Assembly (NCBI GenBank): GCA_963766715.1
Contig: CAVYBH010000012.1
Location: 352,001 to 416,000 of the forward strand
DNA from: an uncultured delta proteobacterium
GTDB taxonomy: Bacteria; Myxococcota; Myxococcia; Myxococcales; Anaeromyxobacteraceae
DNA length: 64,000 nt
Direction: 5' to 3'
A model generated the notes under the pieces. It was not told the origin of the DNA and did not search any database. It worked only from the letters and a program-made list of their open reading frames with translations. Made by a program: the position numbers and the translations under genes. Below, piece by piece: positions 43,104 to 60,363 of this stretch. Every line of letters begins with the position of its first letter. Position 1 is the stretch's first letter.

Positions 43104-44644
43104 GTGGCCGGCGCCCTGATGCTGGCCGCGATCGCGGCCTTCGCCTTCGTGGAGATGGCCATCGCCCGGCAGCGCCTGGCCGGGGTGAACGCCTCCACCG
43201 CGCTCCTCAGCGAGACCATCTCGGCCTCGGTTCGCCACGCCATGATGCGGGACGAGCGCGGCGAGGCCTACGCCATCATCGACAACATCGGGCGCCAGTC
43301 CCAGATCGCCCACATCCGCATCATCAACAAGGAGGGGCGGATCACCTTCTCCACCGTCCCGGGCGAGAAGGGGACGCTCGTCGACAAGCGGGCCGAGGGG
43401 TGCCGCGCCTGCCACGAGGGGGAGAACGAGAGCCTCACGGTCCCGGTCGACGCCCTTCGCGCCCGGATCTACGAAGGGCGGGGCGGGCGGGTGCTCTCCA
43501 CGGTGACGCCCTTCCGGACCAGTCCCGATTGCACGACGAGCGCCTGCCACGTGCACCCCAGGGAGAAGACGGTGCTCGGGGTCCTCGACGTGGGCGTCTC
43601 GCTCGCCCCGGTCGACCGCGACCTGGCGTCCTTCCGGCGGGTCAGCCTCATCGTCACCGCCATCCTCGCCCTGCTGCTCGGTGCGTTCTTCTGGTACGTG
43701 GCCAACCACCGGGTGGTCCGTCCGGTGGAGGCGCTCGTGCAGGCCACGCGCCGGGTGGCCCACGACGAGCTCGACACCGAGATCCACATCGACGCCAAGG
43801 GCGAGCTGGGCCTGCTGGCGGCCTCGTTCAACGAGATGATCCGCTCGCTGCGGCGGGTGGAGGGAGAGCTCCGCCTGCTCACCGAGCAGCTGGAGGAGAA
43901 GGTCGAGGAGCGCACCGGCGAGCTCCGGGCCGCCCAGGACACGCTCGTGCGCACCGAGAAGCTCTCCTCCTGGGCAAGCTCTCCGCCTCCATCGCCCACG
44001 AGATCAACAACCCGCTGGCGGGCATCCTCACCTTCGCGAAGCTCATGATCCGGACCATCGAGCACGGACCGGTGGGCGAGGCCGAGCGGCGCACGCTGGT
44101 GAAGCAGCTGGCGCTGGTGCAGCGGGAGACCGAGCGCTGCACGGCCATCGTCCGCAACCTCCTCGACTTCGCGCGGGAGCGTCCGCTGCAGCTCAAGGAC
44201 GTGGACGTGAACCAGGTGGTGGACGAGGTCTTCTCCCTGGTGGCGAACCAGACCGCCATCCTCGGGGTGCAGGTGGAGAAGGACCTGGCCAAGGTCCCGA
44301 TGGTGGACGCCGACTTCGGGCAGCTCCGCCAGGCCTTCATCAACATCGTGATCAACGGCATCGAGGCCATGGGCAAGGGGGGGCACCTCCGGGTCGCCAC
44401 CCGGCCCCTGCCCGAGGAGGACGCCGTCGAGATCACCTTCCAGGACGACGGGCCCGGCATCCCGCCCGAGCTGATGCAGAAGATCTTCGATCCCTTCTTC
44501 ACGACGAAGGAGAAGGGCACCGGGCTGGGACTGTCGGTCGTCTACGGCATCGTCGACCGCCACAAGGGACGCGTTTCGGTGGAGAGCGAGCCGGGCAAGG
44601 GCACACGCTTCACCATCCAGCTCCCGGCGGCGCGCGGGTCGTGA
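43104..44644 (+). CDS. Sensor histidine kinase with periplasmic heme-c motifs and HAMP (frameshift near 43968; start uncertain)
   Basis: CRACH and CTTSACH between two TM helices; IAHEINNPL, DPFFTTK, GTGLGL. Confidence 0.9.
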
Positions 44645-44645
44645 C

Positions 44646-45175
44646 GTGGAGGCCATACACCTTTGGTGGATCGGTGAGAAGGATCCCGGCCTCAGGACGC
44701 TCGAGCACGTCCGCCTGCACCTGGAGCGCGCCCTGGGCGCGCCGGCGCGCATCTGGGACGACCCCGAGCGGCCGCCCGACGCCTACGACCACCGGCGGAA
44801 GCAGTGGTCCACGGCGCGGATCCTGGCATGGCTCGGGAAGGCCGGGCCTCCCGGCAAGGTGCTCGCCGTGACCGACCAGGACCTCTTCATCCCCATCCTC
44901 ACGTTCGTCTTCGGCGAGGCCCAGCTCAACGGAAGGGCGGCGGTGGTCTCCACCGCCCGGCTCGGGGAGCCCGGGCTTCCCGATCCCCGCGTGGCGCTCG
45001 AGCGGCTCGCCAAGGAGAGCGTCCACGAGATGGGGCATTGCTTCGGGCTCGTCCACTGCGACAGCCCGGGGTGCGTCATGGGGCGCTCGCCGAGCGCCCG
45101 GGACGTCGACAAGAAGCGCGGAGAGTTCTGCACCCGGTGTCGAGGCCGCATCATGCGGAGCGGGGGAGAGGGTCA

Positions 45176-45179
<4 letters not shown>
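44646..45179 (+). CDS. Archaemetzincin-family (M54) Zn metalloprotease
   Basis: FVFGEA, HEMGHCFGLVHC (HExxHxxGxxHC), CVM Met-turn, FCTRC. Confidence 0.88.
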
Positions 45180-46561
<1,382 letters not shown>

Positions 46562-46876: not shown

Positions 46877-46891
46877 TGGCCCACCCCTTGC
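46877..46891 (+). promoter_or_regulatory. Sigma54 (-24/-12) promoter of the redox operon
   Basis: TGGCCCACCCCTTGC: GG-N10-GC, 25 bp before the ATG at 46916, right after a bEBP gene. Confidence 0.75.
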
Positions 46892-46915: not shown

Positions 46916-47140
46916 ATGACTTGCCCGTACCTCACCGAAGTGACGATGGTCTTCTGCCAGGCATCTCCGCAGAAGAAGCTCATCCCCAGCGACCGGATCA
47001 GCACGGCGTCGGCCTGCGAGGGAGACGCCTTCAACGGCTGCGCCCTGTACCGCGAGGCCCTGGCCCGAGCCCTCCACACCATCGAAGAGCTCGAGACCGA
47101 GATCAAGGCCTCGACGGAGAAGAAGGGGGCGCACTCGTGA
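46916..47140 (+). CDS. Small Cys4 protein (74 aa), unknown function
   Basis: GGAGGAGG RBS; MTCPYL..FC..SAC..GCALY with a C-terminal coiled-coil-like tail. Confidence 0.75.
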   Translation: MTCPYLTEVTMVFCQASPQKKLIPSDRISTASACEGDAFNGCALYREALARALHTIEELETEIKASTEKKGAHS

Positions 47141-47231: not shown

Positions 47232-48146
47232 ATGAAGCTCGGCAGACGAACCTTCCTGCAGATCGCCGGCGCAACGGGAACCGCGGCACTCGTCACCCTC
47301 CCGGGGCGGGCGCAGGCGAACGGCACCATTCCCATCGCCGGCGAGGACGAGAGCTCCGTCCTCGTCGACACCACCAAGTGCGTCGGCTGCCGCGGCTGCG
47401 AGGCCGCCTGCGCCGAGGCCAACAAGCTGCCCGACCCGCCCACCGACGGCGCGGCCTTCGCGGCCATGCGCCCCACCGGTCCCGACTGCTTCACCGTCGT
47501 GAACCGGACCGAGAAGCGGGACGGCACGCCGCGGTACGTGAAGCGCCAGTGCATGCACTGCGTCGAGCCGGCCTGCGCCTCGGCCTGCCCGGTCCGCGCG
47601 CTCGACAAGCAGGCCACCGGCCCGGTGTCCTACGACGGCAGCAAGTGCATGGGCTGCCGCTACTGCATGGTCGCCTGCCCGTTCTCGGTGCCCAAGTACG
47701 AGTACAACTCGGCGCTGCCGGTGGTCCGCAAGTGCACGTTCTGTGCGGGCCGCCAGGCCGAGGGCAAGCGCCCCGCCTGCATCGGCGTCTGCCCGAGCGG
47801 CGCGCTCACCTACGGGACGCGCGGCCGGATGGTCGAGGAGGCGCGGCGCCGGGTGTACGGCAACCCGGACAAGTACACGCAGCACATCTACGGCGAGCAC
47901 GAGGCCGGCGGGACGAACTGGCTCTACATCACGGACGTCCCGTTCGAGAAGCTCGGGTTCGAGGTCGCCGTCAACGACAACTCCTACCCGAAGCTGGTCA
48001 AGGGCGCGCTCGGCGTGCCGCCGGTGGTCATGACGCTGTGGCCGCCGCTCCTGATGGGGCTCTGGGCGTTCTCACACCGCGACAAGAGCAAGTCGCACGA
48101 CACCGATCACGGCGGCGGCAAGGCCGACGGAGGCAACCATGTCTAG
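47232..48146 (+). CDS. Tat-exported 4x[4Fe-4S] protein (HybA/HmcB/NrfC-like) with C-terminal TM anchor
   Basis: GRRTFLQ Tat motif; CVGCRGCEAAC, CMHCVEPAC, CMGCRYCMVACP, CTFC..PACIGVCP; YGEHEAGGT. Confidence 0.92.
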   Translation: MKLGRRTFLQIAGATGTAALVTLPGRAQANGTIPIAGEDESSVLVDTTKCVGCRGCEAACAEANKLPDPPTDGAAFAAMRPTGPDCFTVVNRTEKRDGTPRYVKRQCMHCVEPACASACPVRALDKQATGPVSYDGSKCMGCRYCMVACPFSVPKYEYNSALPVVRKCTFCAGRQAEGKRPACIGVCPSGALTYGTRGRMVEEARRRVYGNPDKYTQHIYGEHEAGGTNWLYITDVPFEKLGFEVAVNDNSYPKLVKGALGVPPVVMTLWPPLLMGLWAFSHRDKSKSHDTDHGGGKADGGNHV

Positions 48147-49363
48147 CATCGTGACCACGACCACCCCCGAGCGCTCGGGCGGTTGGGTCCAGGAGCGCAT
48201 CTTCCTCGGCATGACGTTCCGGGAGTACCTGAAGTCCCTCTGGACGCCCTTCAACATCGTCTGCGCGGCCATCCTCGCCGTGGGCCTGCCGGTGATCTTC
48301 TTCCGGTTCTACCTGGGGCTGGGCGCCACCACGAACCTCTCCCAGACCCAGCCGTGGGGTCTCTGGATCGGGTTCGACATGATGACCGGCATCGCGCTGG
48401 CCGCCGGCGGGTTCACCATCGGTGCGACGGTGGAGATCTTCGGGCTCGAGGAGTACCACGCCATCGAGCGGCCGGCGATCCTGACCGGCTTCCTCGGCTA
48501 CATGATGGCGGTCATCGGCCTCATCGCCGACCTGGGCAAGCCCTGGAACATGGTCGGCATCTTCTCCAACAACGGGACGCAGTCGGTCCTCTTCGAGGTC
48601 GCCTGGTGCGTGTGCTGCTACACCACCGTCCTCATGCTGGAGTTCGCCGTGCCGTTCTTCGAGTGGCTGGGCTGGGAGCGCTTCTACCGCCCGCTCAAGA
48701 AGGCGCTGCTCGCCCTCACCGTGCTGTCCGTCATGTTCTCGACCATGCACCAGTCGGCGCTCGGCTCGCTCTTCATCATCGCCCCGGGCAAGCTCCACCC
48801 GCTCTGGTACTCCAGCCAGATCTTCCTGTTCTTCTTCATCAGCGCCATGATCGCCGGCATCTGCATGGTCATCGTGGAGAGCACCATCTCCCACAAGGTC
48901 TTCTCCGAGCAGTTCAAGGGGCAGCACATCGACGTGGAGAAGCTCTCCATCGGCCTGGCCAAGGCCGGCGCGGTGGTGATGTTCGCCTACTTCTTCCTGA
49001 AGCTGCAGGGCGTCATCGACAACCACGCGCTCGGGCTCATCGGAGTCGGCTTCTACGGCAAGTGGTTCCTGGTGGAGATGCTGGGCTTCGTGCTGCTCCC
49101 CTCGCTGCATGTTCGCCTGGGGCGCCCGGAACGAGAAGATCCTCCCGGTGCGCATCGCCGCCATCCTGGGCGTGCTCGGAATCGTCCTCAACCGGCTCAA
49201 CGTCTCGCTCATCGCCTACAACTACAACCAGCCGGTCCGCTACTGGCCCAGCTGGATGGAGGTGTCGGTCTCCCTGATGCTGGTGGTGGTCGGCATCCTG
49301 GCCTTCCGCTGGATCGTGAACCGCATGCCCGTGCTCCGGCCGCTCCCTGGCGCGGAGCACTGA
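48139..49363 (+). CDS. NrfD/PsrC-family integral membrane quinone-interacting subunit (HybB/HmcC-like; frameshift near 49105)
   Basis: PWGLWIGFD, ALAAGGF, DLGKPW, SVLFEVAWC, STMHQSALGSL, KLHPLW. Confidence 0.92.
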
Positions 49364-49370
49364 GGACGCC

Positions 49371-50060
49371 ATGCACGGCAACGAATTCCTGAGCGGGTAC
49401 GCCGCCAAGCTGGTCGAGTACGGGCTGGCGGTCACCTACCTGGTCCTGTTCGTGGGCTTCTGGCGCTACGTGCAGGGCGGCAAGGGGGCCGAGCGGGCGG
49501 TCGAGGTGGCCGAGCCGGAGCAGGCCGTGGCGACCGGGTGGTTCTCGGTGCCCACCGGCGTGGCGCTCCACCCGGGTCACACCTGGGCGCGGATGGAGGC
49601 CGACGGCTCGGTGGCCGTCGGGCTCGACGACCTCGGTCACCGCCTCGTCGGCGACGTGGACCGGGTGACGCTCCCGGCCCGGGGAGCCCGGGTGGAGCAG
49701 GGAGAGCCCGCGGTCTCGCTCGCCGCAGGGGGACGGAGCGTGAAGGTCGTGTCCCCGGTGGACGGGGAGGTCATCGCCTACAACTCCGCCCCGGACACGC
49801 ACGACGACCCGTACGGCCAGGGCTGGCTCTTCCGGGTCCGCCCGGAGAACTGGAAGCGCAGCCGCGCGCAGCTCCTGGAGGGAGCGGCGGCGCGCGAGTG
49901 GCTCGAGGAGCAGGGGCGGCTGCTCGCCTCCCGCCTGGGCTCCGAGCCGGTGCCCGTCCTCCAGGACGGCGGCGCCCCGGTTCACGGCATCGCCCGCGAG
50001 ATCGACCCGGAGCACTGGGACGCCATCGCGCGAGAGTTCTTCCGCACGCAGGAAACCTAG
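49371..50060 (+). CDS. Membrane-anchored GcvH-like protein 1, lipoyl Lys absent
   Basis: N-terminal TM; HPGHTWA, VGLDD, SPVDGEV, DDPYGQGWL; C-terminal LQDGG..W..EFF. Confidence 0.85.
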   Translation: MHGNEFLSGYAAKLVEYGLAVTYLVLFVGFWRYVQGGKGAERAVEVAEPEQAVATGWFSVPTGVALHPGHTWARMEADGSVAVGLDDLGHRLVGDVDRVTLPARGARVEQGEPAVSLAAGGRSVKVVSPVDGEVIAYNSAPDTHDDPYGQGWLFRVRPENWKRSRAQLLEGAAAREWLEEQGRLLASRLGSEPVPVLQDGGAPVHGIAREIDPEHWDAIAREFFRTQET

Positions 50061-50069
50061 GGGACAGAC

Positions 50070-50415
50070 ATGACCATCCAGGGAAAGACGTTCCGCCTCC
50101 TCGCCGTCCTCGCCTCCGCGGTGCTGGCCACCGCGGCGGCCGCCGACGGGCTCGAGAAGCTGCCGCCCGACTACACCTTGCCGCAGTCGGAGGGCAGCCC
50201 GGGCAAGGTGATCTTCAGCCACTCGAGCCACGTCGACGTGAAGGCGCCGGGCTGCACCCGGTGCCACCCCAAGCTCTTCAAGACCCTCGAGAAGGGCGCC
50301 ACGGCCGACGGGCAGCGGATCACGCCACAAGGTCATGGAGGCTGGCGGCCAGTGCGGAGCCTGCCACGGGAAGGCCGCCTTCAACTTCGAGAGCTGCGAC
50401 CTCTGTCACCGGTAG
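50070..50415 (+). CDS. Triheme cytochrome c7-type protein (frameshift near 50325)
   Basis: Signal peptide, VIFSHSSH, CTRCH; CGACH and CDLCH in the shifted frame. Confidence 0.85.
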
Positions 50416-50419
50416 TGTC

Positions 50420-51118
50420 ATGGCCCCGGCGCTCGACCTGCTGACCGCGATGGGCGTCTTCCTGGCCGGGCTCCTCGCCCGGCTGGGAATCGTGGTGGGG
50501 GTCCTGCTCCTCCTGGCGGTGCCGGTGGCCTTGCTGGGCGGCGGCGTGCGGGCCTTCCGCGCGCTGCGGCTCCGGGCGATGGGCTACCGGAGCGCCGGGG
50601 CGCTCCGCTTCCGGGATGGCCTGCGCTACGCGCCGGGCCACACCTGGATCCGGCCGGACGGGCAGCGCTTCCGCGTCGGGCTCGACGACCTCGCCCAGAA
50701 GCTCCTGCCCTGGGCGGTCGCCGTGGAGTTGCCGCGCCCGGGCCAGCCGGTGCAGGCGGGGGAAGCCGTGGCGCGGATCTCCTGCGGTGGCCAGGAGGCG
50801 CGGGTCGCCGCCCCGTTCTCGGGCCGGATCGTCGCGATCAACACCGACGTCCTGGGCGAGCCGACGCTCGTGAAGAGCGAGAGCTACGGCCGGGGCTGGC
50901 TGTTCGCGATCGAGCCGGTCGACGGGGCCTGGAGAGGGTTGCCCGACGGCGAGCGCGCGCGCGGCTGGATGCGCGAGGAGGGCGAGCGGCTGGCGCGCTT
51001 CTACGAGCAGCACCTCGGGTACGCGGCGGCGGACGGGGGCGATCTCGTCGGCCCGCCCGCGTCGCTCCTCGGGGAGTCGGGGTGGAGGGCGCTGACGCGG
51101 GCCTTCCTCCGGACCTGA
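50420..51118 (+). CDS. Membrane-anchored GcvH-like protein 2, lipoyl Lys absent
   Basis: N-terminal TM; YAPGHTWI, VGLDD, APFSGRIVAIN, SYGRGWL; C-terminal AADGG..W..AFL. Confidence 0.85.
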   Translation: MAPALDLLTAMGVFLAGLLARLGIVVGVLLLLAVPVALLGGGVRAFRALRLRAMGYRSAGALRFRDGLRYAPGHTWIRPDGQRFRVGLDDLAQKLLPWAVAVELPRPGQPVQAGEAVARISCGGQEARVAAPFSGRIVAINTDVLGEPTLVKSESYGRGWLFAIEPVDGAWRGLPDGERARGWMREEGERLARFYEQHLGYAAADGGDLVGPPASLLGESGWRALTRAFLRT

Positions 51119-51433: not shown

Positions 51434-52474
51434 ATGAAGAGGTTCTTGCTGGCGCTCGTGGTCGCTCTCGTGGCCACCGCGGGGCGCGCAGAGATCCCTG
51501 CCGAGCAGGACAGCTGCCTGGGCTGCCACGGCAGCGACCCGTCCATGTCGATGGACCTGCCGAGCGGCGAGAAGCTCCCGCTCTACGTGGACCAGGCGCA
51601 CTTCGGCAAGTCCGTGCACGGCGACATGCTTCGCTGCACCGACTGCCACACCGACAAGGGCGACTACCCGCACGAGTCGAAGCCCTTCAAGACCCGCCGC
51701 GACGTCACGGTGGCCTATTACGAGCAGTGCAAGAAGTGCCACTTCTCGAACTACACGAAGACGCTCGACGGCGTTCACTACCAGCTCGCGCAGAAGGGCA
51801 ATCGCCAGGCCGCGCTCTGCGTCGACTGCCACGGGTCGCACGGCATCGGCCGGCCGGGCGAGCCCCGCACGCGGGTCTCCGAGACCTGCTCGACCTGCCA
51901 CAAGGAAGTGTTCGAGGTCTACAAGGGCAGCGTGCACGGCAAGGCCGTCACCCAGGGCAACGGCGACGTCCCGGTCTGCACCGACTGCCACCGCGCGCAC
52001 GACGTGGCCGACCCGCGGGCCGGCGCGCTGTCGCTGCGCACCGCCGAGATCTGCGGCCGCTGCCACACCGACCAGAAGCTCATGAAGCGCTACGGGCTCT
52101 CCACCAACGTGGTCGACAGCTACCTCTCCGACTTCCACGGCATGGCGGCGTCCCTGCAGAAGGGCAAGAAGGGCAAGGGCGATCGCCTCGCGGCAGGCTG
52201 CACCGACTGCCACGGGGTGCACGACATCCAGCGCCCCAACGACCCGCGCTCGTCGGTCATGCAGGCGAACCTCGTGAAGACCTGCGGCAAGTGCCACGTG
52301 GGCGCCACCGCCGACTTCCCCAAGGCCTGGATGTCCCACTACGAGCCCAGCCTGAAGAAGTCGCCGCTCGTGTGGAGCGTCCAGCTCTTCTATTACATCC
52401 TCATCCCGTTCATCCTCGTCAGCCTCGCCATCCAGATCGCGCTGCACCTCTGGCGCGTCGTGGTGAACCGATGA
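51434..52474 (+). CDS. Nonaheme cytochrome c with C-terminal membrane anchor
   Basis: Signal peptide MKRFLLAL..; CLGCH, CTDCH, CKKCH, CVDCH, CSTCH, CTDCH, CGRCH, CTDCH, CGKCH. Confidence 0.92.
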   Translation: MKRFLLALVVALVATAGRAEIPAEQDSCLGCHGSDPSMSMDLPSGEKLPLYVDQAHFGKSVHGDMLRCTDCHTDKGDYPHESKPFKTRRDVTVAYYEQCKKCHFSNYTKTLDGVHYQLAQKGNRQAALCVDCHGSHGIGRPGEPRTRVSETCSTCHKEVFEVYKGSVHGKAVTQGNGDVPVCTDCHRAHDVADPRAGALSLRTAEICGRCHTDQKLMKRYGLSTNVVDSYLSDFHGMAASLQKGKKGKGDRLAAGCTDCHGVHDIQRPNDPRSSVMQANLVKTCGKCHVGATADFPKAWMSHYEPSLKKSPLVWSVQLFYYILIPFILVSLAIQIALHLWRVVVNR

Positions 52475-53233
52475 GCGGCGACTCGGCAGGGGTGGGAGAA
52501 TCCGGCGTGAGGAGCGCGACGATGAGCGACGAGGCGGTGAAGGAGCGGGCGTCCTACCTGATGCGCTTCACGGCGGCGCAGCGCGTGGAGCACTTCATCA
52601 CCATGATCGACTTCGTGGGGCTCGTGGCCACCGGCCTGCCCCAGAAGTTCTACACGGCCAAGTGGGCGCAGTGGGTCATCGGCCTGATGGGCGGGATCGA
52701 CAGCGTCCGGTGGGTCCACCGCTTCTTCGGCGTGGTCCTCATCTTCGCGGTCGTCTGGCACGGCATCGGGGCCCTGCGGGCCATCCTCTCCCGCAAGGTC
52801 GGCTTCAGCATGGCCGTGAACAAGCGCGACTTCAGCGACGCGGTCCAGACGCTCCGCTACTACCTGGGCCTCGAGGATCACCCGGCCGCCTTCGACCGCT
52901 ACGACTACAAGCAGAAGTGGGAGTACTGGAGCCTCATGATCGGCAACGTGATCGATGATCCTCTCCGGTCTCACGCTGATGTACCCGACCATCGTGGCCC
53001 GCCTGGGGCCGGGCGAGATCATCCCGGCCGCCAAGGTCGCGCACTCGAACGAGGGGCTGATGGCCTTCCTCGTCATCACGGTCTGGCACGTCTTCAACGC
53101 CCACCTGCACCCGGACGTCTTCCCGTTCGACGCGTCGATCTTCACCGGGAAGATCAGCCGCGAGCGCATGGAGCACGAGCACCCGCTCGAGCTGGCGCGC
53201 GCCGAGGGACGGGAGCCCTCCGGCCACCACTAG
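52471..53233 (+). CDS. Di-heme cytochrome b (FdnI/HydC-like) membrane subunit (frameshift near 52954)
   Basis: RFTAAQRVEH, TGLPQ, HRFFG, YKQKWEYW, AHSNEG, WHVFNAH, MEHEHPLE. Confidence 0.88.
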
Positions 53234-53245
53234 GCCGGGCCGCGC

Positions 53246-54238
53246 ATGACCGGCCAGAGGTGGATGGACTTCGCCGGCCAGGCGATCTTCCACACGCTGG
53301 TCGCGGCGCTGGTGATCGAGGCGCTGGTGCGCCTGTGGGGCGTCCGGGAGCCGCTGCAGCGGACCGGCTTCCGCCTGCTCGCGCTGGCCTGGCCGCTGAT
53401 CGTGGTCCCGGCGCTCTTCCTCCTCTTCCCCGGCCGGGAGGGCGAGGCCTTCCGGGACGCCCGGTCCCTCTTCGCGGGGCACCACTGGAACGACCTGTCG
53501 TTCCTGGGCATCGGCCTCTACGCCTGGTGGATCGCGGGGATGGCGGCGATGGGGCTCGCCCTCTTCCTCCTCGACCTCGTCCCCTGGCTCCGGGCGCGCA
53601 GCGCGGAGCCGCCTCCCTGGCTGGCGCGGAGCGCGGAGGGCGAGCGGGCCCTCGAGGCGCTCGCGCGCGCCGCCGCCTCCCTGGGCATGGAGGCGCCGCC
53701 GCTCGTCTTCGTTCCCGATGGGCCGCCGGTGCTCTACTGCACCGGGACGCGCCGCCCGTCGGTGGTCATCTCCCGCGGGGCGGTCGACCTGCTCGACCCC
53801 GCCGAGCTGACCTGCGCGCTGGCCCACGAGCTGGCCCACCTGGAGCGCCGGGACCCGGCGCTCTCCTGGGCGCTCATGGGGGCTCGCGCGCTCATGTGGT
53901 TCAACCCCGGCGTGCAGGTCCTCGTCCGGGCGCTGGCCCGCGACGCCGAGCGGGTGGCCGACGAGCGCGCCGCCGCTGCGAGCGGGGACCGGCTGGCGCT
54001 GGCGAGCGGCCTGCTCCAGCTCTACCGGGCCACGGAGGGGCGCATCCCGTCCCGCGCGGCCGAGCCCTTTCCGCTCTCGGCCTCGCTCGCCGAGCCCATC
54101 GCCCGGGCCCGGGCCCACGACATCGAGCAGCGCTGCAGGGCCCTCCTCATCCCCCCGCCCGAGCCGGTGCGCCTGGCGGGCCTGCGGTTCGCCGCCGCGG
54201 CGGGCGGCCTCGGCCTGCTGCTGTTCTTCGTGGTATGA
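53246..54238 (+). CDS. BlaR1/M56-like membrane Zn metallopeptidase
   Basis: TM helices, LAHELAHLERRD, WFNP, ERVAD. Confidence 0.85.
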   Translation: MTGQRWMDFAGQAIFHTLVAALVIEALVRLWGVREPLQRTGFRLLALAWPLIVVPALFLLFPGREGEAFRDARSLFAGHHWNDLSFLGIGLYAWWIAGMAAMGLALFLLDLVPWLRARSAEPPPWLARSAEGERALEALARAAASLGMEAPPLVFVPDGPPVLYCTGTRRPSVVISRGAVDLLDPAELTCALAHELAHLERRDPALSWALMGARALMWFNPGVQVLVRALARDAERVADERAAAASGDRLALASGLLQLYRATEGRIPSRAAEPFPLSASLAEPIARARAHDIEQRCRALLIPPPEPVRLAGLRFAAAAGGLGLLLFFVV

Positions 54239-57447: not shown

Positions 57448-59020
57448 TTGCTGCTGGAGCGGCTCGCCGTGATCCATGGGGATCGGGATCGTTCACGGCC
57501 CGAGGGCGGGGAGAGATTGCGGGTTCTGTTCACGAGTGCGCCGGAACCGAGCTGTGCGGCCGAGTCCGCGGGGGCCTGGCTCCCGCTCGCGCTCGTCCAC
57601 CTGGCCGGTGCGGTCCGGGCCGCCGGGCACGAGGCCGAGCTCGTCGACGCGCTCTCCCTGGGGCTGACCGCTGCCGACCTGGGCCGCATCATCCAGGCCA
57701 GCGCGCCCGACGTGGTCTGCGTCTCGTCGGCGACCGCCGGCTTCCCGGCCGCCCTGGATACCTGCCGGCGCGCCCGCGGGCTCGGCTGCACCACCGTGGT
57801 CGGCGGCATTCACGCCTCGTTCATGTATTCCGAGTTCCTGCCCACCGGTTCCGTGGACTTCGCCGTCGTCGGGGAGGGGGAGGAGACGCTTCCGGAGCTC
57901 CTGGCCTGCCTCGAGGCAGGCGACGACCCGGCGCGGGTGGCCGGGATCGCCTTCTCCCTGGGCGGGCGGGTCGTCCGGACCGCGCCGCGCCCCCGGATGT
58001 CGGTGCTCGACCCGATGCCCAAGGCCTGGGACCTCCTCGACTGGTCCCAGTACACGTGGGCGGGCCGGCCTGGCTCCCGCATGGGCGCCATCACCACGTC
58101 CCGCGGATGCCCGCGGAGCTGTGCGAGCTGCTCCCAGGCGACGCAGTTCGAGGGAACCTGGCGCTCCCGGACCCCGGGGTGCGTGGCCTACGAGCTGGCC
58201 GGCCTTCGCCGCGACCACGGCGTGGACGTGGTCGGCTTCTTCGACCACGCCCCCACCGCCGACGCCGGCCGGTTCGCCGAGCTGATCACCCGGGTGACCG
58301 AGGCGGAGCTCGGGCTCGACCTGGTGCTCTGGTCGAGCGTCCAGGACGTCCTCCGGGACGAGGCCGCGCTCGCTCGCTGGCGCGCGGCCGGGGTGGTCCA
58401 CGTCGGGACTCTGCCGCGATCCGTCCGAGGATCGGCTCGACGGACTGGAGGCGGACCGGTCGCTCGTCGCCGGAAGGCGCGCGGTGAAGGCGCTGCGGGA
58501 CCACGGCATCACCTCCGAGACGTCCTACTGGATGGGGTTTCCCGACGAGACGTCCCGCCGGGTCGAGGAGTTGCTGGAGCGGGCCCGGGCCTGGGACCCG
58601 GACGTCGCCCACTTCTCCCTGCTCGCGCCGCTTCCGTACACGCCGGCCTGGCGGGTTCACGGCACGCACGTGGCGACCCGGGACTACCGGCGCTTCAACC
58701 ACCGCGACCCGGTGGTGAAGCCGCGGGAGATGTCGCTCGACGAGGTCGGCCTCGAGGCGGCGCGCTGCTACCGCCGGTTCTACGCGGAGCGCGCCCGCCG
58801 GGAGTCGGTGCGCGACGGGCGGCAATCCGGCCCGTGGCACGTGCACCTCGGAGCCCCGGCGCTCCGGGCCCGGATCCTGGCAGGTGCGACGGACGAGGAG
58901 TTGCGCGCGCTCGCCCCCGTGGCTGCGATTCCCCCGGGCCTGAGGGCCGGCCGCATCCCTTTCGCGGGGGGGCCCGGCCGGGGCGCTTCGGGCGCAACCG
59001 CTGCGCGAGGCACGGAATAG
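57448..59020 (+). CDS. Cobalamin-binding radical SAM protein, BchE-like but divergent (frameshift near 58410; start uncertain)
   Basis: [51 protein letters not shown]. Confidence 0.75.
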
Positions 59021-59022
59021 AA

Positions 59023-59039
59023 ACTGTAGTAAATACAGT
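59023..59039. promoter_or_regulatory. AT-rich palindromic operator-like site
   Basis: ACTGTA-GTAAA-TACAGT perfect 6-5-6 inverted repeat 10 bp upstream of the -24 element. Confidence 0.6.
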
Positions 59040-59048
59040 ATGTTGTGT

Positions 59049-59064
59049 AGGCACGCGCATTGCT
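59049..59064 (+). promoter_or_regulatory. Sigma54 promoter of hemA
   Basis: AGGCACGCGCATTGCT, near-consensus GGCAC-N5-TTGCT. Confidence 0.8.
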
Positions 59065-59088
59065 AAGGTCACGGAGCCGGAGGGGTCG

Positions 59089-60363
59089 ATGCTCGTCGCC
59101 ATCGGGGTGGACAGGAAAAGGGCTTCGGTTGCTTCGCGGGAGAGGCTCGCCGCCGGCGGCGACGACCTCGCCGACGTCATCCGGTCGTACGGCGCGCTCG
59201 ACGGCGTCGACGAGGCGTTCGTGCTCTCCACCTGCTACCGGGTCGAGGTCTACGCCGCGTCGTCCTGCCCTGCCGCCGCCGCCGCCAGCCTCACCGAGGC
59301 GCTCCGGGCCCGCGCCGGCGACGCCGAGCTTCCCGTCTTCGACCTCCGGGGCGAGGAGGCGTTCCGCCACCTCTCGCGCGTGGCCTCCAGCCTCGAGTCC
59401 GGGGTGGTCGGGGAGCCGCAGGTCCTCGGCCAGGTGAAGGAGGCCTTCGGCCGTTCCGCCGAGGCCGGCACCGTCGGCAAGGAGCTCTCGGCCGTCATCG
59501 CGCGCGTCCTCCAGGTCGCGAAGCGGGTCCGGACCGAGACCGCCATCGGCCGGGCCGGCGTCTCGTGGGGACACGCCTCGGCCGATCTCGCCGAGAAGGT
59601 CCTCGGTCCGCTCGAGGGGCGTCGCGCCGTGGTGGTGGGCGCCGGCGAGATGGCGCGCCTCTCGGCCCAGCACCTGCGCGAGGGCGGGATGGAGGTGGCG
59701 GTCGTCAACCGCACCTTCGCCAACGCCGAGGCGCTCGCCCGGGAGATCGGCGGCACCGCGCACCCCATCGAGGCGCTCGCCGAGGAGCTGGTCCGCGCCG
59801 ACGTGGCCGTGGTCGCCGCCCCGGTCGCGCTCGCGGCGCTCGAGCCCTCCGGGGCGCCGGCGCTCATGAAGCGGCGCCGGCACCGGCGCCTGCTCCTCAT
59901 CGACCTCGCCGTCCCTCGCGCCGTTCCTCCCGCGCTCGGCGACGTCGACGGCATCTACGTCTGCGACGTGGACGACCTGGCGCGCATCCAGCGCCAGGCG
60001 CAGGAGGCCCGGGTCGGCGCCATCCAGGACGCCGAGCGGGTCATCGACGAGGAGGTCACCCGCTTCGCCCGCGACCTCGCCGAGCGGCGCGCCGCGCCCC
60101 TCATCGCCGCGGTCCGGACCCGGGCCAGCGCGATCGCCCGGGAGGAGGTCGAGCGCACCGTCCGCCGCCTGGGAGGCGATCCGGAGCTCGAGCGGCGGCT
60201 CGACGCCCTCGCGGGCGCGATCGTCGCGAAGCTCCTTCACCAGCCCAGCGTCTGCCTTCGCCGGGCGGGGCACGACGCCGAGGGGGGCGACGAGCTGATG
60301 GCCGCCGCGGCCCGGATCTTCGACGTCGGCGCCGACGCCGGGCCGGCCTCGCTGGCGGGCTGA
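59089..60363 (+). CDS. hemA: Glutamyl-tRNA reductase
   Basis: [48 protein letters not shown]. Confidence 0.92.

Follow-up and report, generated by a model that had tools for sequence, protein, structure and literature searches.

A 64,000-nucleotide stretch of contig CAVYBH010000012.1 (assembly GCA_963766715.1, positions 352,001 to 416,000), from an uncultured member of the Anaeromyxobacteraceae, holds two genes for proteins resembling GcvH, the H protein of the glycine cleavage system, in a row of genes for respiratory proteins. This whole stretch, with a G+C content of about 72%, is called the window here; positions are counted from its first letter, and the two genes, the row around them and the regulatory genes before it lie on the plus strand. 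The first gene (49371..50060) encodes P0001, a type-1 protein of 229 residues, and the second (50420..51118) encodes P0002, a type-2 protein of 232 residues. P0001 carries a transmembrane helix at residues 4-36, the Gly-Gly of a hairpin at 49728-49733, and an Asp-Gly-Gly (DGG) sequence at 49965-49973. P0002 has a transmembrane helix with an invariant Arg21, an SCGG hairpin whose Gly-Gly lies at 50786-50791, and its own DGG at 51032-51040. The two share 34% identity across 173 residues, and the alignment of their family profiles begins at the linker and runs through the tail to the final residue (hhalign probability 100%, E 2.5e-51).

Fold, lipoyl-lysine position and orientation

Both proteins exceed the 22.2-bit gathering score of Pfam GCV_H (PF01597), P0001 with 63.6 bits and P0002 with 70.6 bits, and neither reaches the cut-off of 115.85 of the NCBIfam gcvH model TIGR00527 (56.9 and 63.6 bits). 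The AlphaFold2 model of P0001, calculated from an alignment of 112 relatives, has a mean predicted local distance difference test score (pLDDT) of 89.8. It consists of the helix at residues 4-36, a low-confidence linker, an H-protein barrel (61-160), a C-terminal helix (171-188), and a tail formed by a loop (189-206) and two short helices. Foldseek searches with this model return the H proteins of E. coli, Thermus and pea as top matches, with target-normalised TM-scores of 0.81-0.85 (0.82-0.85 for the E. coli structures 3a8i and 3ab9). The window proteins share with GcvH the fold and the core motifs GHxW, GxDD(F/L)A, SPVxGxVxxVN and PYxxGW. They differ from it in lacking the lipoyl lysine, in their N-terminal transmembrane helix, in a 40-residue DGG...W...F tail, and in their respiratory context.

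The original prediction had placed glycine at the lipoyl-lysine position of both paralogues, and three independent alignments agree. In a phmmer alignment to the pea H protein (1dxm), the lipoyl-lysine column falls on the first glycine of the P0002 SCGG hairpin. When profiles are aligned with the canonical GcvH of this genome and with the Thermus H protein, it falls on the second; both candidate positions are glycine in P0001 and in P0002. Among 370 relatives of 180-280 residues aligned to the family model, only four have lysine at either candidate acceptor column. The column that follows the hairpin Gly-Gly holds arginine in 185 of these relatives, lysine in 77 and glutamine in 35 (arginine in P0001, glutamine in P0002), a mixture that leaves no conserved lysine acceptor there.

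The prediction had further described a non-lipoylated, repurposed H-protein family. The repurposed, lysine-less part stands by sequence, and lipoylation has probably been lost, because the lysine is missing family-wide, the NCBIfam scores are low, the context is respiratory, and a canonical gcv operon exists separately. At the sequence level it is well supported that the two proteins diverged as paralogues within a large GcvH-fold family that would no longer carry lipoate. A cofactor-carrier fold thus seems to have been reused for another job in a respiratory operon of an iron-reducer-like bacterium.

The genome keeps its canonical gcvT-gcvH-gcvP row on a separate contig (C17:171963-174730), where the gcvH has an ESTKA hairpin and scores 154.7 bits on Pfam. 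The sole BPL_LplA_LipB match lies at C12:236038, 116 kb before the window. Both positions accord with the earlier remark that no glycine-cleavage genes or lipoate ligase lie near the pair.

The DGG...W...F tail, noted at the outset as common to both paralogues and absent from true GcvH, proves to be near-invariant family-wide. Among the 370 relatives, D199, the aspartate first suggested to be possibly functional, is kept in 361, G200 in 361, G201 in 363 and W216 in 355, while R21, D205, G206, G207 and W222 are invariant in an alignment of 40 type-2 sequences. A profile search of Protein Data Bank (PDB) sequences gave no solved chain past about position 184, that is, none covering the tail. The DGG loop has a pLDDT of about 67 in the P0001 model and below 50 in the model of a tandem fusion (P0406, described below). 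Behind it, the conserved W216 and F223 belong to a segment modelled as packed helices with pLDDT >87. A loop that is conserved yet modelled at low confidence fits the pattern of a partner-binding loop, although this is speculation.

Orientation was assessed from the mean number of lysine and arginine residues in the 15 positions after the hydrophobic helix compared with the flank before it. Type-1 proteins average 3.1 after the helix and 0.67 before, with more after than before in 100 of 111, and type-2 proteins average 3.15 and 1.05, with more after than before in all 40. Natural fusions give the same orientation. P0178 and P0205 each consist of a signal peptide, four CXXCH motifs, and then the family helix and GcvH-like domain; in P0138 the GcvH-like protein comes first, and another hydrophobic segment and then a c7 cytochrome come after it. 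In these three proteins the periplasmic cytochrome and the GcvH-like domain lie on opposite sides of a helix. The charge counts and the cytochrome fusions together indicate an N-out/C-in helix with the barrel in the cytoplasm, which backs the cytoplasmic placement first suggested by the basic residues after the N-terminal helix.

Some polar residues within the helices are conserved too. Of 125 type-1 proteins, 76 keep K13 and 76 keep E16; R21 is present in 40 of 40 type-2 proteins, and an N-terminal FATKGIEYL motif is retained even in the cytochrome-fused forms. Judged from sequence, a plain membrane anchor would not need such residues. No set of cysteines or histidines is conserved across both types, as H67 occurs in type 1 only and the hairpin cysteine in type 2 only. 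A metal site formed by H67 and H70 was rejected on the grounds that H67 is confined to type 1 and is alanine in type 2. The hairpin cysteine was likewise dismissed as a catalytic thiol, since it is kept in only 31 of 40 type-2 sequences; the other nine have alanine, glycine or serine there, and type 1 lacks it.

The operon and its regulators

P0001 and P0002 are encoded among the genes of a quinone/cytochrome module. An HmcB/HybA-like periplasmic Fe-S protein with four clusters and a Tat-like signal (47232..48146) is matched by NCBIfam HmcB at 337.3 bits (cut-off 420) and by HybA at 232.6 bits, and its Pfam basis is Fer4_11 plus a weak TAT_signal match. It is followed by an HmcC/HybB-like membrane subunit of the NrfD type (48139..49363), which NCBIfam HmcC matches on two pieces with 332.8 and 85.2 bits (cut-off 550). 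Between the two GcvH-like genes stands a small periplasmic cytochrome of the c7 type with three CXXCH motifs (50070..50416; Cytochrome_C7, 44.3 bits on the intact orthologue in locus L002). The gaps between HmcC, P0001, the c7 gene and P0002 measure 3 to 9 bases.

Downstream of P0002 lies a c-type cytochrome with nine CXXCH haem motifs and a C-terminal transmembrane anchor, matched by Pfam multihaem families and resembling CbcA in its build (51434..52474). The next gene encodes a cytochrome b of the PF01292 type with a CbcB-like build (52471..53233; Ni_hydr_CYTB, 46.6 bits on the intact L002 orthologue). A membrane protein similar to peptidases M56 and M48 follows (53246..54238; Peptidase_M56, 57.6 bits), and this gene is kept in loci L002, L008, L010, L011, L012, L014 and L015.

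The row opens with a gene for a 74-residue protein (46916..47140) with four cysteines in the pattern CPYL...C...C...CP. All 17 orthologues in the alignment keep C3, C14, C34 and C42, and the protein has no family in Pfam or NCBIfam. A kinship with the Cys-rich N-terminus of P0392, a 614-residue fusion protein, was dropped when BLASTP showed no similarity between the two. A promoter-like element of the sigma-54 -24/-12 type, TGGCCCACCCCTTGC, lies at 46877..46891, 25 nucleotides before this first gene and with one mismatch to the consensus. All 17 loci with the small Cys gene show the pattern TGG(C/T)-N7-(T/G)TG(C/A), read by eye, at this position, 13 of them in the exact form TGGC-N7-TTGC. Across the window such elements are not above chance, with 23 matches found and 39 expected at up to two mismatches. 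The best explanation is that P0001 and P0002 are co-translated from a sigma-54-type operon together with HmcB/HmcC, the c7 cytochrome and the CbcA/CbcB-like pair.

Three regulatory genes precede the operon. The first encodes a sensor histidine kinase with periplasmic haem-c motifs (43104..44644), whose frame is broken near 44045. HAMP lies in its N-terminal piece and HisKA plus HATPase_c in 43952-44641, and the haem motifs, CRACH at residue 100 and CTTSACH at residue 143, are found between two hydrophobic stretches. The third encodes a BccR-like, sigma-54-dependent response regulator with receiver (REC), AAA+ and Fis-type helix-turn-helix parts (45176..46561; Sigma54_activat 240 bits, Response_reg, HTH_8). 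Between the kinase and this activator stands a gene for an archaemetzincin-like peptidase of family M54 with 178 residues (44643..45179; PF07998, 78.9 bits).

The genes for HmcC, c7 and cytochrome b each show one frame change in the window and are in frame in relatives. Compared with close relatives, c7 and cytochrome b have an extra base next to a GATC. Near-identical contigs from public sequencing runs omit one base at 49108 (run X4), at 50325 (X2 and X4) and at 52954 (all four runs compared), so that the breaks at these positions look like insertion errors of the assembly (base-calling) and not like pseudogenes. Contigs from the metatranscriptome X16 match parts of the operon at 90-99% likeness; being contigs, they cannot show transcription in this organism.

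Family distribution, linked genes and fusions

A search of a representative library clustered at 50% identity with P0001 gave 3502 matches at E <=1e-3, ordinary H proteins included, and 87 at E <=1e-30. The best 150 matches are mostly full-length proteins of 220-245 residues. The source names seen for family members are uniformly "glycine cleavage system H protein", so that glycine cleavage may be over-counted when the metabolism of anaerobes from soil, wetland and sediment is reconstructed. Genomes were tallied with family-profile thresholds set to exclude ordinary H proteins. In a Myxococcota sample of 301 genomes, one of them unpublished (G196), a best E of 6e-42 or lower was taken as family level; 36 of 40 Anaeromyxobacteraceae genomes have such a match, compared with 14 of the 261 others. 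In the largest other Myxococcota family, none of the 115 scored genomes rises above the match level of canonical GcvH. Of 201 Acidobacteriota genomes sampled, 43 match at E <=1e-38, about seven of these matches being without tail coverage, and Atlas clusters extend the family to Bacteroidota. Anaeromyxobacter sp. K and A. oryzisoli are among the carriers in culture, which makes the role of the family directly testable.

Gene linkage was surveyed in 52 loci with flanks, in sets of 20, 12 and 20, by tblastn with the window proteins. HmcB and HmcC genes adjoin a GcvH-like gene in 31 of them (11/20, 5/12 and 15/20), and two further loci have HmcC at a contig end. The loci with this linkage span Anaeromyxobacteraceae, other Myxococcota, Acidobacteriota and KSB1. 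Near-full-length relatives of the sigma-54 activator are found in 31 of 52 loci, M54 relatives in 30 and the sensor part of the kinase in 29. Six loci (L059, L060, L066, L067, L068 and L086) have regulators without HmcBC; in L066 the small Cys gene directly precedes a type-2 GcvH-like gene. Thirteen loci have neither, including two on very short contigs and five of an "orphan pair" kind (L004-L007 and L020) whose neighbours share no common theme. The original prediction took the two proteins to be possibly heterodimeric. Type-1 and type-2 genes are adjacent in many loci, but a single copy occurs in 11 of the 20 Acidobacteriota loci. In many loci of this phylum a lone GcvH-like gene immediately precedes HmcB; in others there are two or three copies.

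The genome under study contains a second type-1 and type-2 pair at C15:156522-157948 on the minus strand, about 62% identical to the pair in the window and with a frame change in the type-1 copy. It is of the orphan-pair kind, the relatives of which in L004-L007 and L020 are without HmcBC-like neighbours.

In a FastTree phylogeny of 63 domain sequences, rooted on the genome's own GcvH and with SH-like supports, type 2 forms one clade (0.987, 22/22) and deeper nodes are weakly supported. Two proteins, P0123 and P0406, are tandem self-fusions. The halves of P0123 are sisters (SH-like 0.997), which indicates an internal duplication of type 1 and not a fusion of type 1 with type 2. The AlphaFold2 model of P0406 (pLDDT 80.6, predicted TM-score 0.72) consequently says little about how a type 1-type 2 pair might be arranged.

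The same barrel and tail are also joined to other domains, and no hairpin lysine is found in the receiver, cytochrome, Fe-S, tandem or approximately 420-residue fusion proteins. Receiver fusions are represented by P0183, by a gene in the KSB1 locus L019 (7356-8519) that stands between the kinase and HmcB, and by one in L067. The GcvH-like part of P0183 is about 80% identical to membrane-anchored proteins of 231 residues, so the anchor and the receiver have been swapped recently.

Further fusions combine the domain with redox modules. In L059 (8710-13453) and L060 (6448-11537), from another Myxococcota family, a module with one 2Fe-2S and two [4Fe-4S] clusters is fused to a lysine-less GcvH-like domain. 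Kinase, activator and M54 genes stand before this gene; after it come another GcvH-like gene and genes resembling NuoE and NuoF, with CCG (HdrD-like) and DsrE genes nearby. Proteins of 605-614 residues in L057 (8423-10237), L058 (8272-10113) and L068 (6397-8211) comprise a Cys-rich N-terminus, an uncharacterised part of about 400-420 residues, and a GcvH-like domain with a DGA tail; their genes are divergent from a cluster of HydS-like [FeFe]-hydrogenase-type, PHP, HATPase and DRTGG genes. P0227, a protein of 1391 residues from the representative library, has three lysine-less GcvH domains without a DGG tail, fused to a GlcD-like FAD-linked oxidase and an Fe-S/CCG (HdrD-like) part.

Searches of the open-access literature gave no paper that links GcvH-like proteins to NrfD/Hmc-type modules or reports them from Anaeromyxobacter, and nothing on a lysine-less, membrane-anchored form of the H protein. 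The cassette of respiratory and regulatory genes is widespread and apparently undescribed. In precomputed tables, a subset of family members is tagged with Pfam PF28260.1; Pfam curators may already have defined part of the family.

Possible roles and comparison with known systems

The favoured reading, given about an even chance of being correct, is that P0001 and P0002 act as cofactor-less cytoplasmic subunits or adaptors of the quinol-cytochrome module. It is preferred because their genes are packed between those of membrane subunits, because no other structural neighbours are as constant as HmcB and HmcC, and because the helices hold conserved polar residues. Each protein would contribute one N-out/C-in helix with polar residues, a cytoplasmic barrel with a Gly-Gly tip, and the 40-residue extension. 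The helix would dock to the NrfD-type subunit, and a partner in the cytoplasm would bind to a surface formed by the barrel and the DGG loop. That the proteins belong physically to the complex, and that they serve as adaptors, is inferred. Several observations weigh against this assignment. The GcvH-like domain occurs without an HmcBC neighbour in the orphan pairs (L004-L007, L020), probably in the second pair of this genome on C15, and in L066, where only the small Cys protein accompanies it. A structural membrane subunit does not explain the receiver fusions or the soluble Fe-S fusions beside NuoE/NuoF-like genes. The kinase sensor (29/52), M54 (30/52) and the activator are linked about as often as HmcBC, and the low model confidence of the DGG loop makes its modelled position in the fold tentative.

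In the main rival reading, possible but held with clearly limited confidence, the barrel and DGG tail form a signalling output or feedback domain that reports the state of a redox input to the kinase, M54 or the sigma-54 activator by binding or releasing one of them. It accounts better than a subunit role for the receiver, cytochrome and Fe-S fusions and for the loci with regulators only, since the same domain is joined to a receiver, to a multihaem cytochrome with its transmembrane helix, to Fer2/Fer4 modules and to the approximately 420-residue part near the HydS-like/PHP/HATPase cluster. The recent exchange of anchor and receiver in P0183 points the same way, as does the linkage to kinase sensor, M54 and activator (29, 30 and 31 of 52 loci), which includes loci without HmcBC. 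Tentatively, an unrecognised output domain might couple diverse redox inputs to a haem-sensor kinase/M54/sigma-54 system that switches on low-potential respiration. The inputs might, just as tentatively, be the NrfD-type quinone module, multihaem cytochromes, Fe-S/NADH modules and a phosphorylated receiver. However, regulators usually adjoin the operons they control, so their linkage does not show contact with the GcvH-like proteins. The GcvH-like genes moreover lie inside the structural operon, between membrane subunits, and the orphan pairs have no such regulators nearby.

Three further explanations carry less weight. P0001 and P0002 could be assembly or maturation factors that stay outside the finished complex, for example chaperones for the Tat-exported Fe-S protein or the NrfD-type subunit; they face the cytoplasm, lack a cofactor, and are linked to HmcB and HmcC and not to any one cytochrome. 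This is unlikely, as the conserved transmembrane residues and the fusion to mature periplasmic cytochromes better fit a permanent membrane protein, and Pfam and NCBIfam scans show no likeness to known Tat chaperones. A role as carriers of another group or modification, held on the DGG loop or the type-2 hairpin cysteine, with the tail perhaps cut at Gly-Gly by M54, ranks slightly lower again. The retention of D-G-G in 361 to 363 of 370 relatives, the linked M54 gene in 30 of 52 loci, and the hairpin cysteine in 31 of 40 type-2 sequences would suit it, as would a radical-SAM gene, downstream of the type-2 gene in L065 and in the vicinity of that gene in L066. Yet the conserved W216 and F223 in confidently packed helices are unlike a leader to be removed, the cysteine is variable in type 2 and absent from type 1, and such a system has no precedent. 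It is most improbable that these are ordinary or alternative lipoylated H proteins whose acceptor lysine has merely shifted in the alignment. The database names and the 77 relatives with lysine after the hairpin would speak for lipoylation. Against it stand the arginine and glutamine of the window proteins and the arginine of 185 relatives in that column, the agreement of three alignments on glycine, and the canonical ESTKA gcvH in its own operon.

For the subunit or adaptor reading, the closest working analogy comes from NqrA and RnfC, which place cofactor-free barrel-sandwich domains on the cytoplasmic side of a respiratory membrane complex. These belong to another family, are not anchored by a transmembrane helix, and have no DGG tail; the sequence signal to NqrA (E 0.26-0.38) and RnfC_N (E 0.15) is only faint. 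Other H-protein folds recruited outside glycine cleavage are LbpA, GcvH-L (PDB 5a35), NF045810 and TIGR03077. GcvH-L keeps and uses its lipoyl lysine, and none of these families is known to be membrane-anchored. P0001 and P0002 score 35.1 and 33.6 bits on NF045810 ("GcvH_rel_desulf", cut-off 150) and 29.3 and 30.0 bits on TIGR03077 ("not_gcvH", cut-off 144). LbpA of the sHdr sulfur-oxidation system is described as lipoylated and as working with an Hdr-like redox complex (PMC6067878, bioRxiv 10.1101/2023.12.18.572138). By that account it retains and uses the lysine that the window proteins lack. Nor does the annotated part of the window show any hdr-like gene.

The best NCBIfam matches of the neighbouring genes are HmcB/HmcC of the Desulfovibrio Hmc complex and HybA/HybB of E. 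coli hydrogenase 2, neither of which is known to have a subunit with the GcvH fold. The neighbours differ from Hmc in scoring below the equivalog cut-offs (337.3 against 420, and 332.8 plus 85.2 against 550). HmcA (16-haem) and HmcF (HdrD-like), checked for between 43 and 57 kb, are missing from the locus, as are HmcE and a hydrogenase.

The operon also resembles the CbcBA/BccR system of Geobacter sulfurreducens. The two have in common a sigma-54 operon, a multihaem cytochrome with a C-terminal transmembrane anchor, a cytochrome b of the dihaem type, an adjacent activator of the receiver type, and small hypothetical genes that lead the operon. This match is at the level of architecture only, and the window cytochrome has nine haem motifs compared with seven in CbcA. 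CbcBA/BccR is reported to set the low-potential limit of metal respiration in Geobacter, and homologous clusters near BccR-like regulators to occur in Anaeromyxobacter (bioRxiv 10.1101/2021.04.15.440034). As described in the same source, where the word "glycine" does not appear, the Geobacter cbcBA operon has two hypothetical genes and a stand-alone receiver but no HmcBC-like or GcvH-like genes. GSU0596 is listed elsewhere as a "response receiver" (PMC10599522). If P0001 and P0002 are subunits or regulators of a CbcBA-like module, they would fill a gap in the picture of electron transfer at the inner membrane of Anaeromyxobacter-like iron reducers, and would clearly exemplify how a cofactor-carrier fold can find new use once its cofactor is lost.

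Farther along the window, a single long open frame at 57448-60360 holds a B12-binding domain and a complete glutamyl-tRNA reductase. The two may be genuinely fused, or separate genes may have been joined by the long open frames of high-G+C DNA or by an indel.

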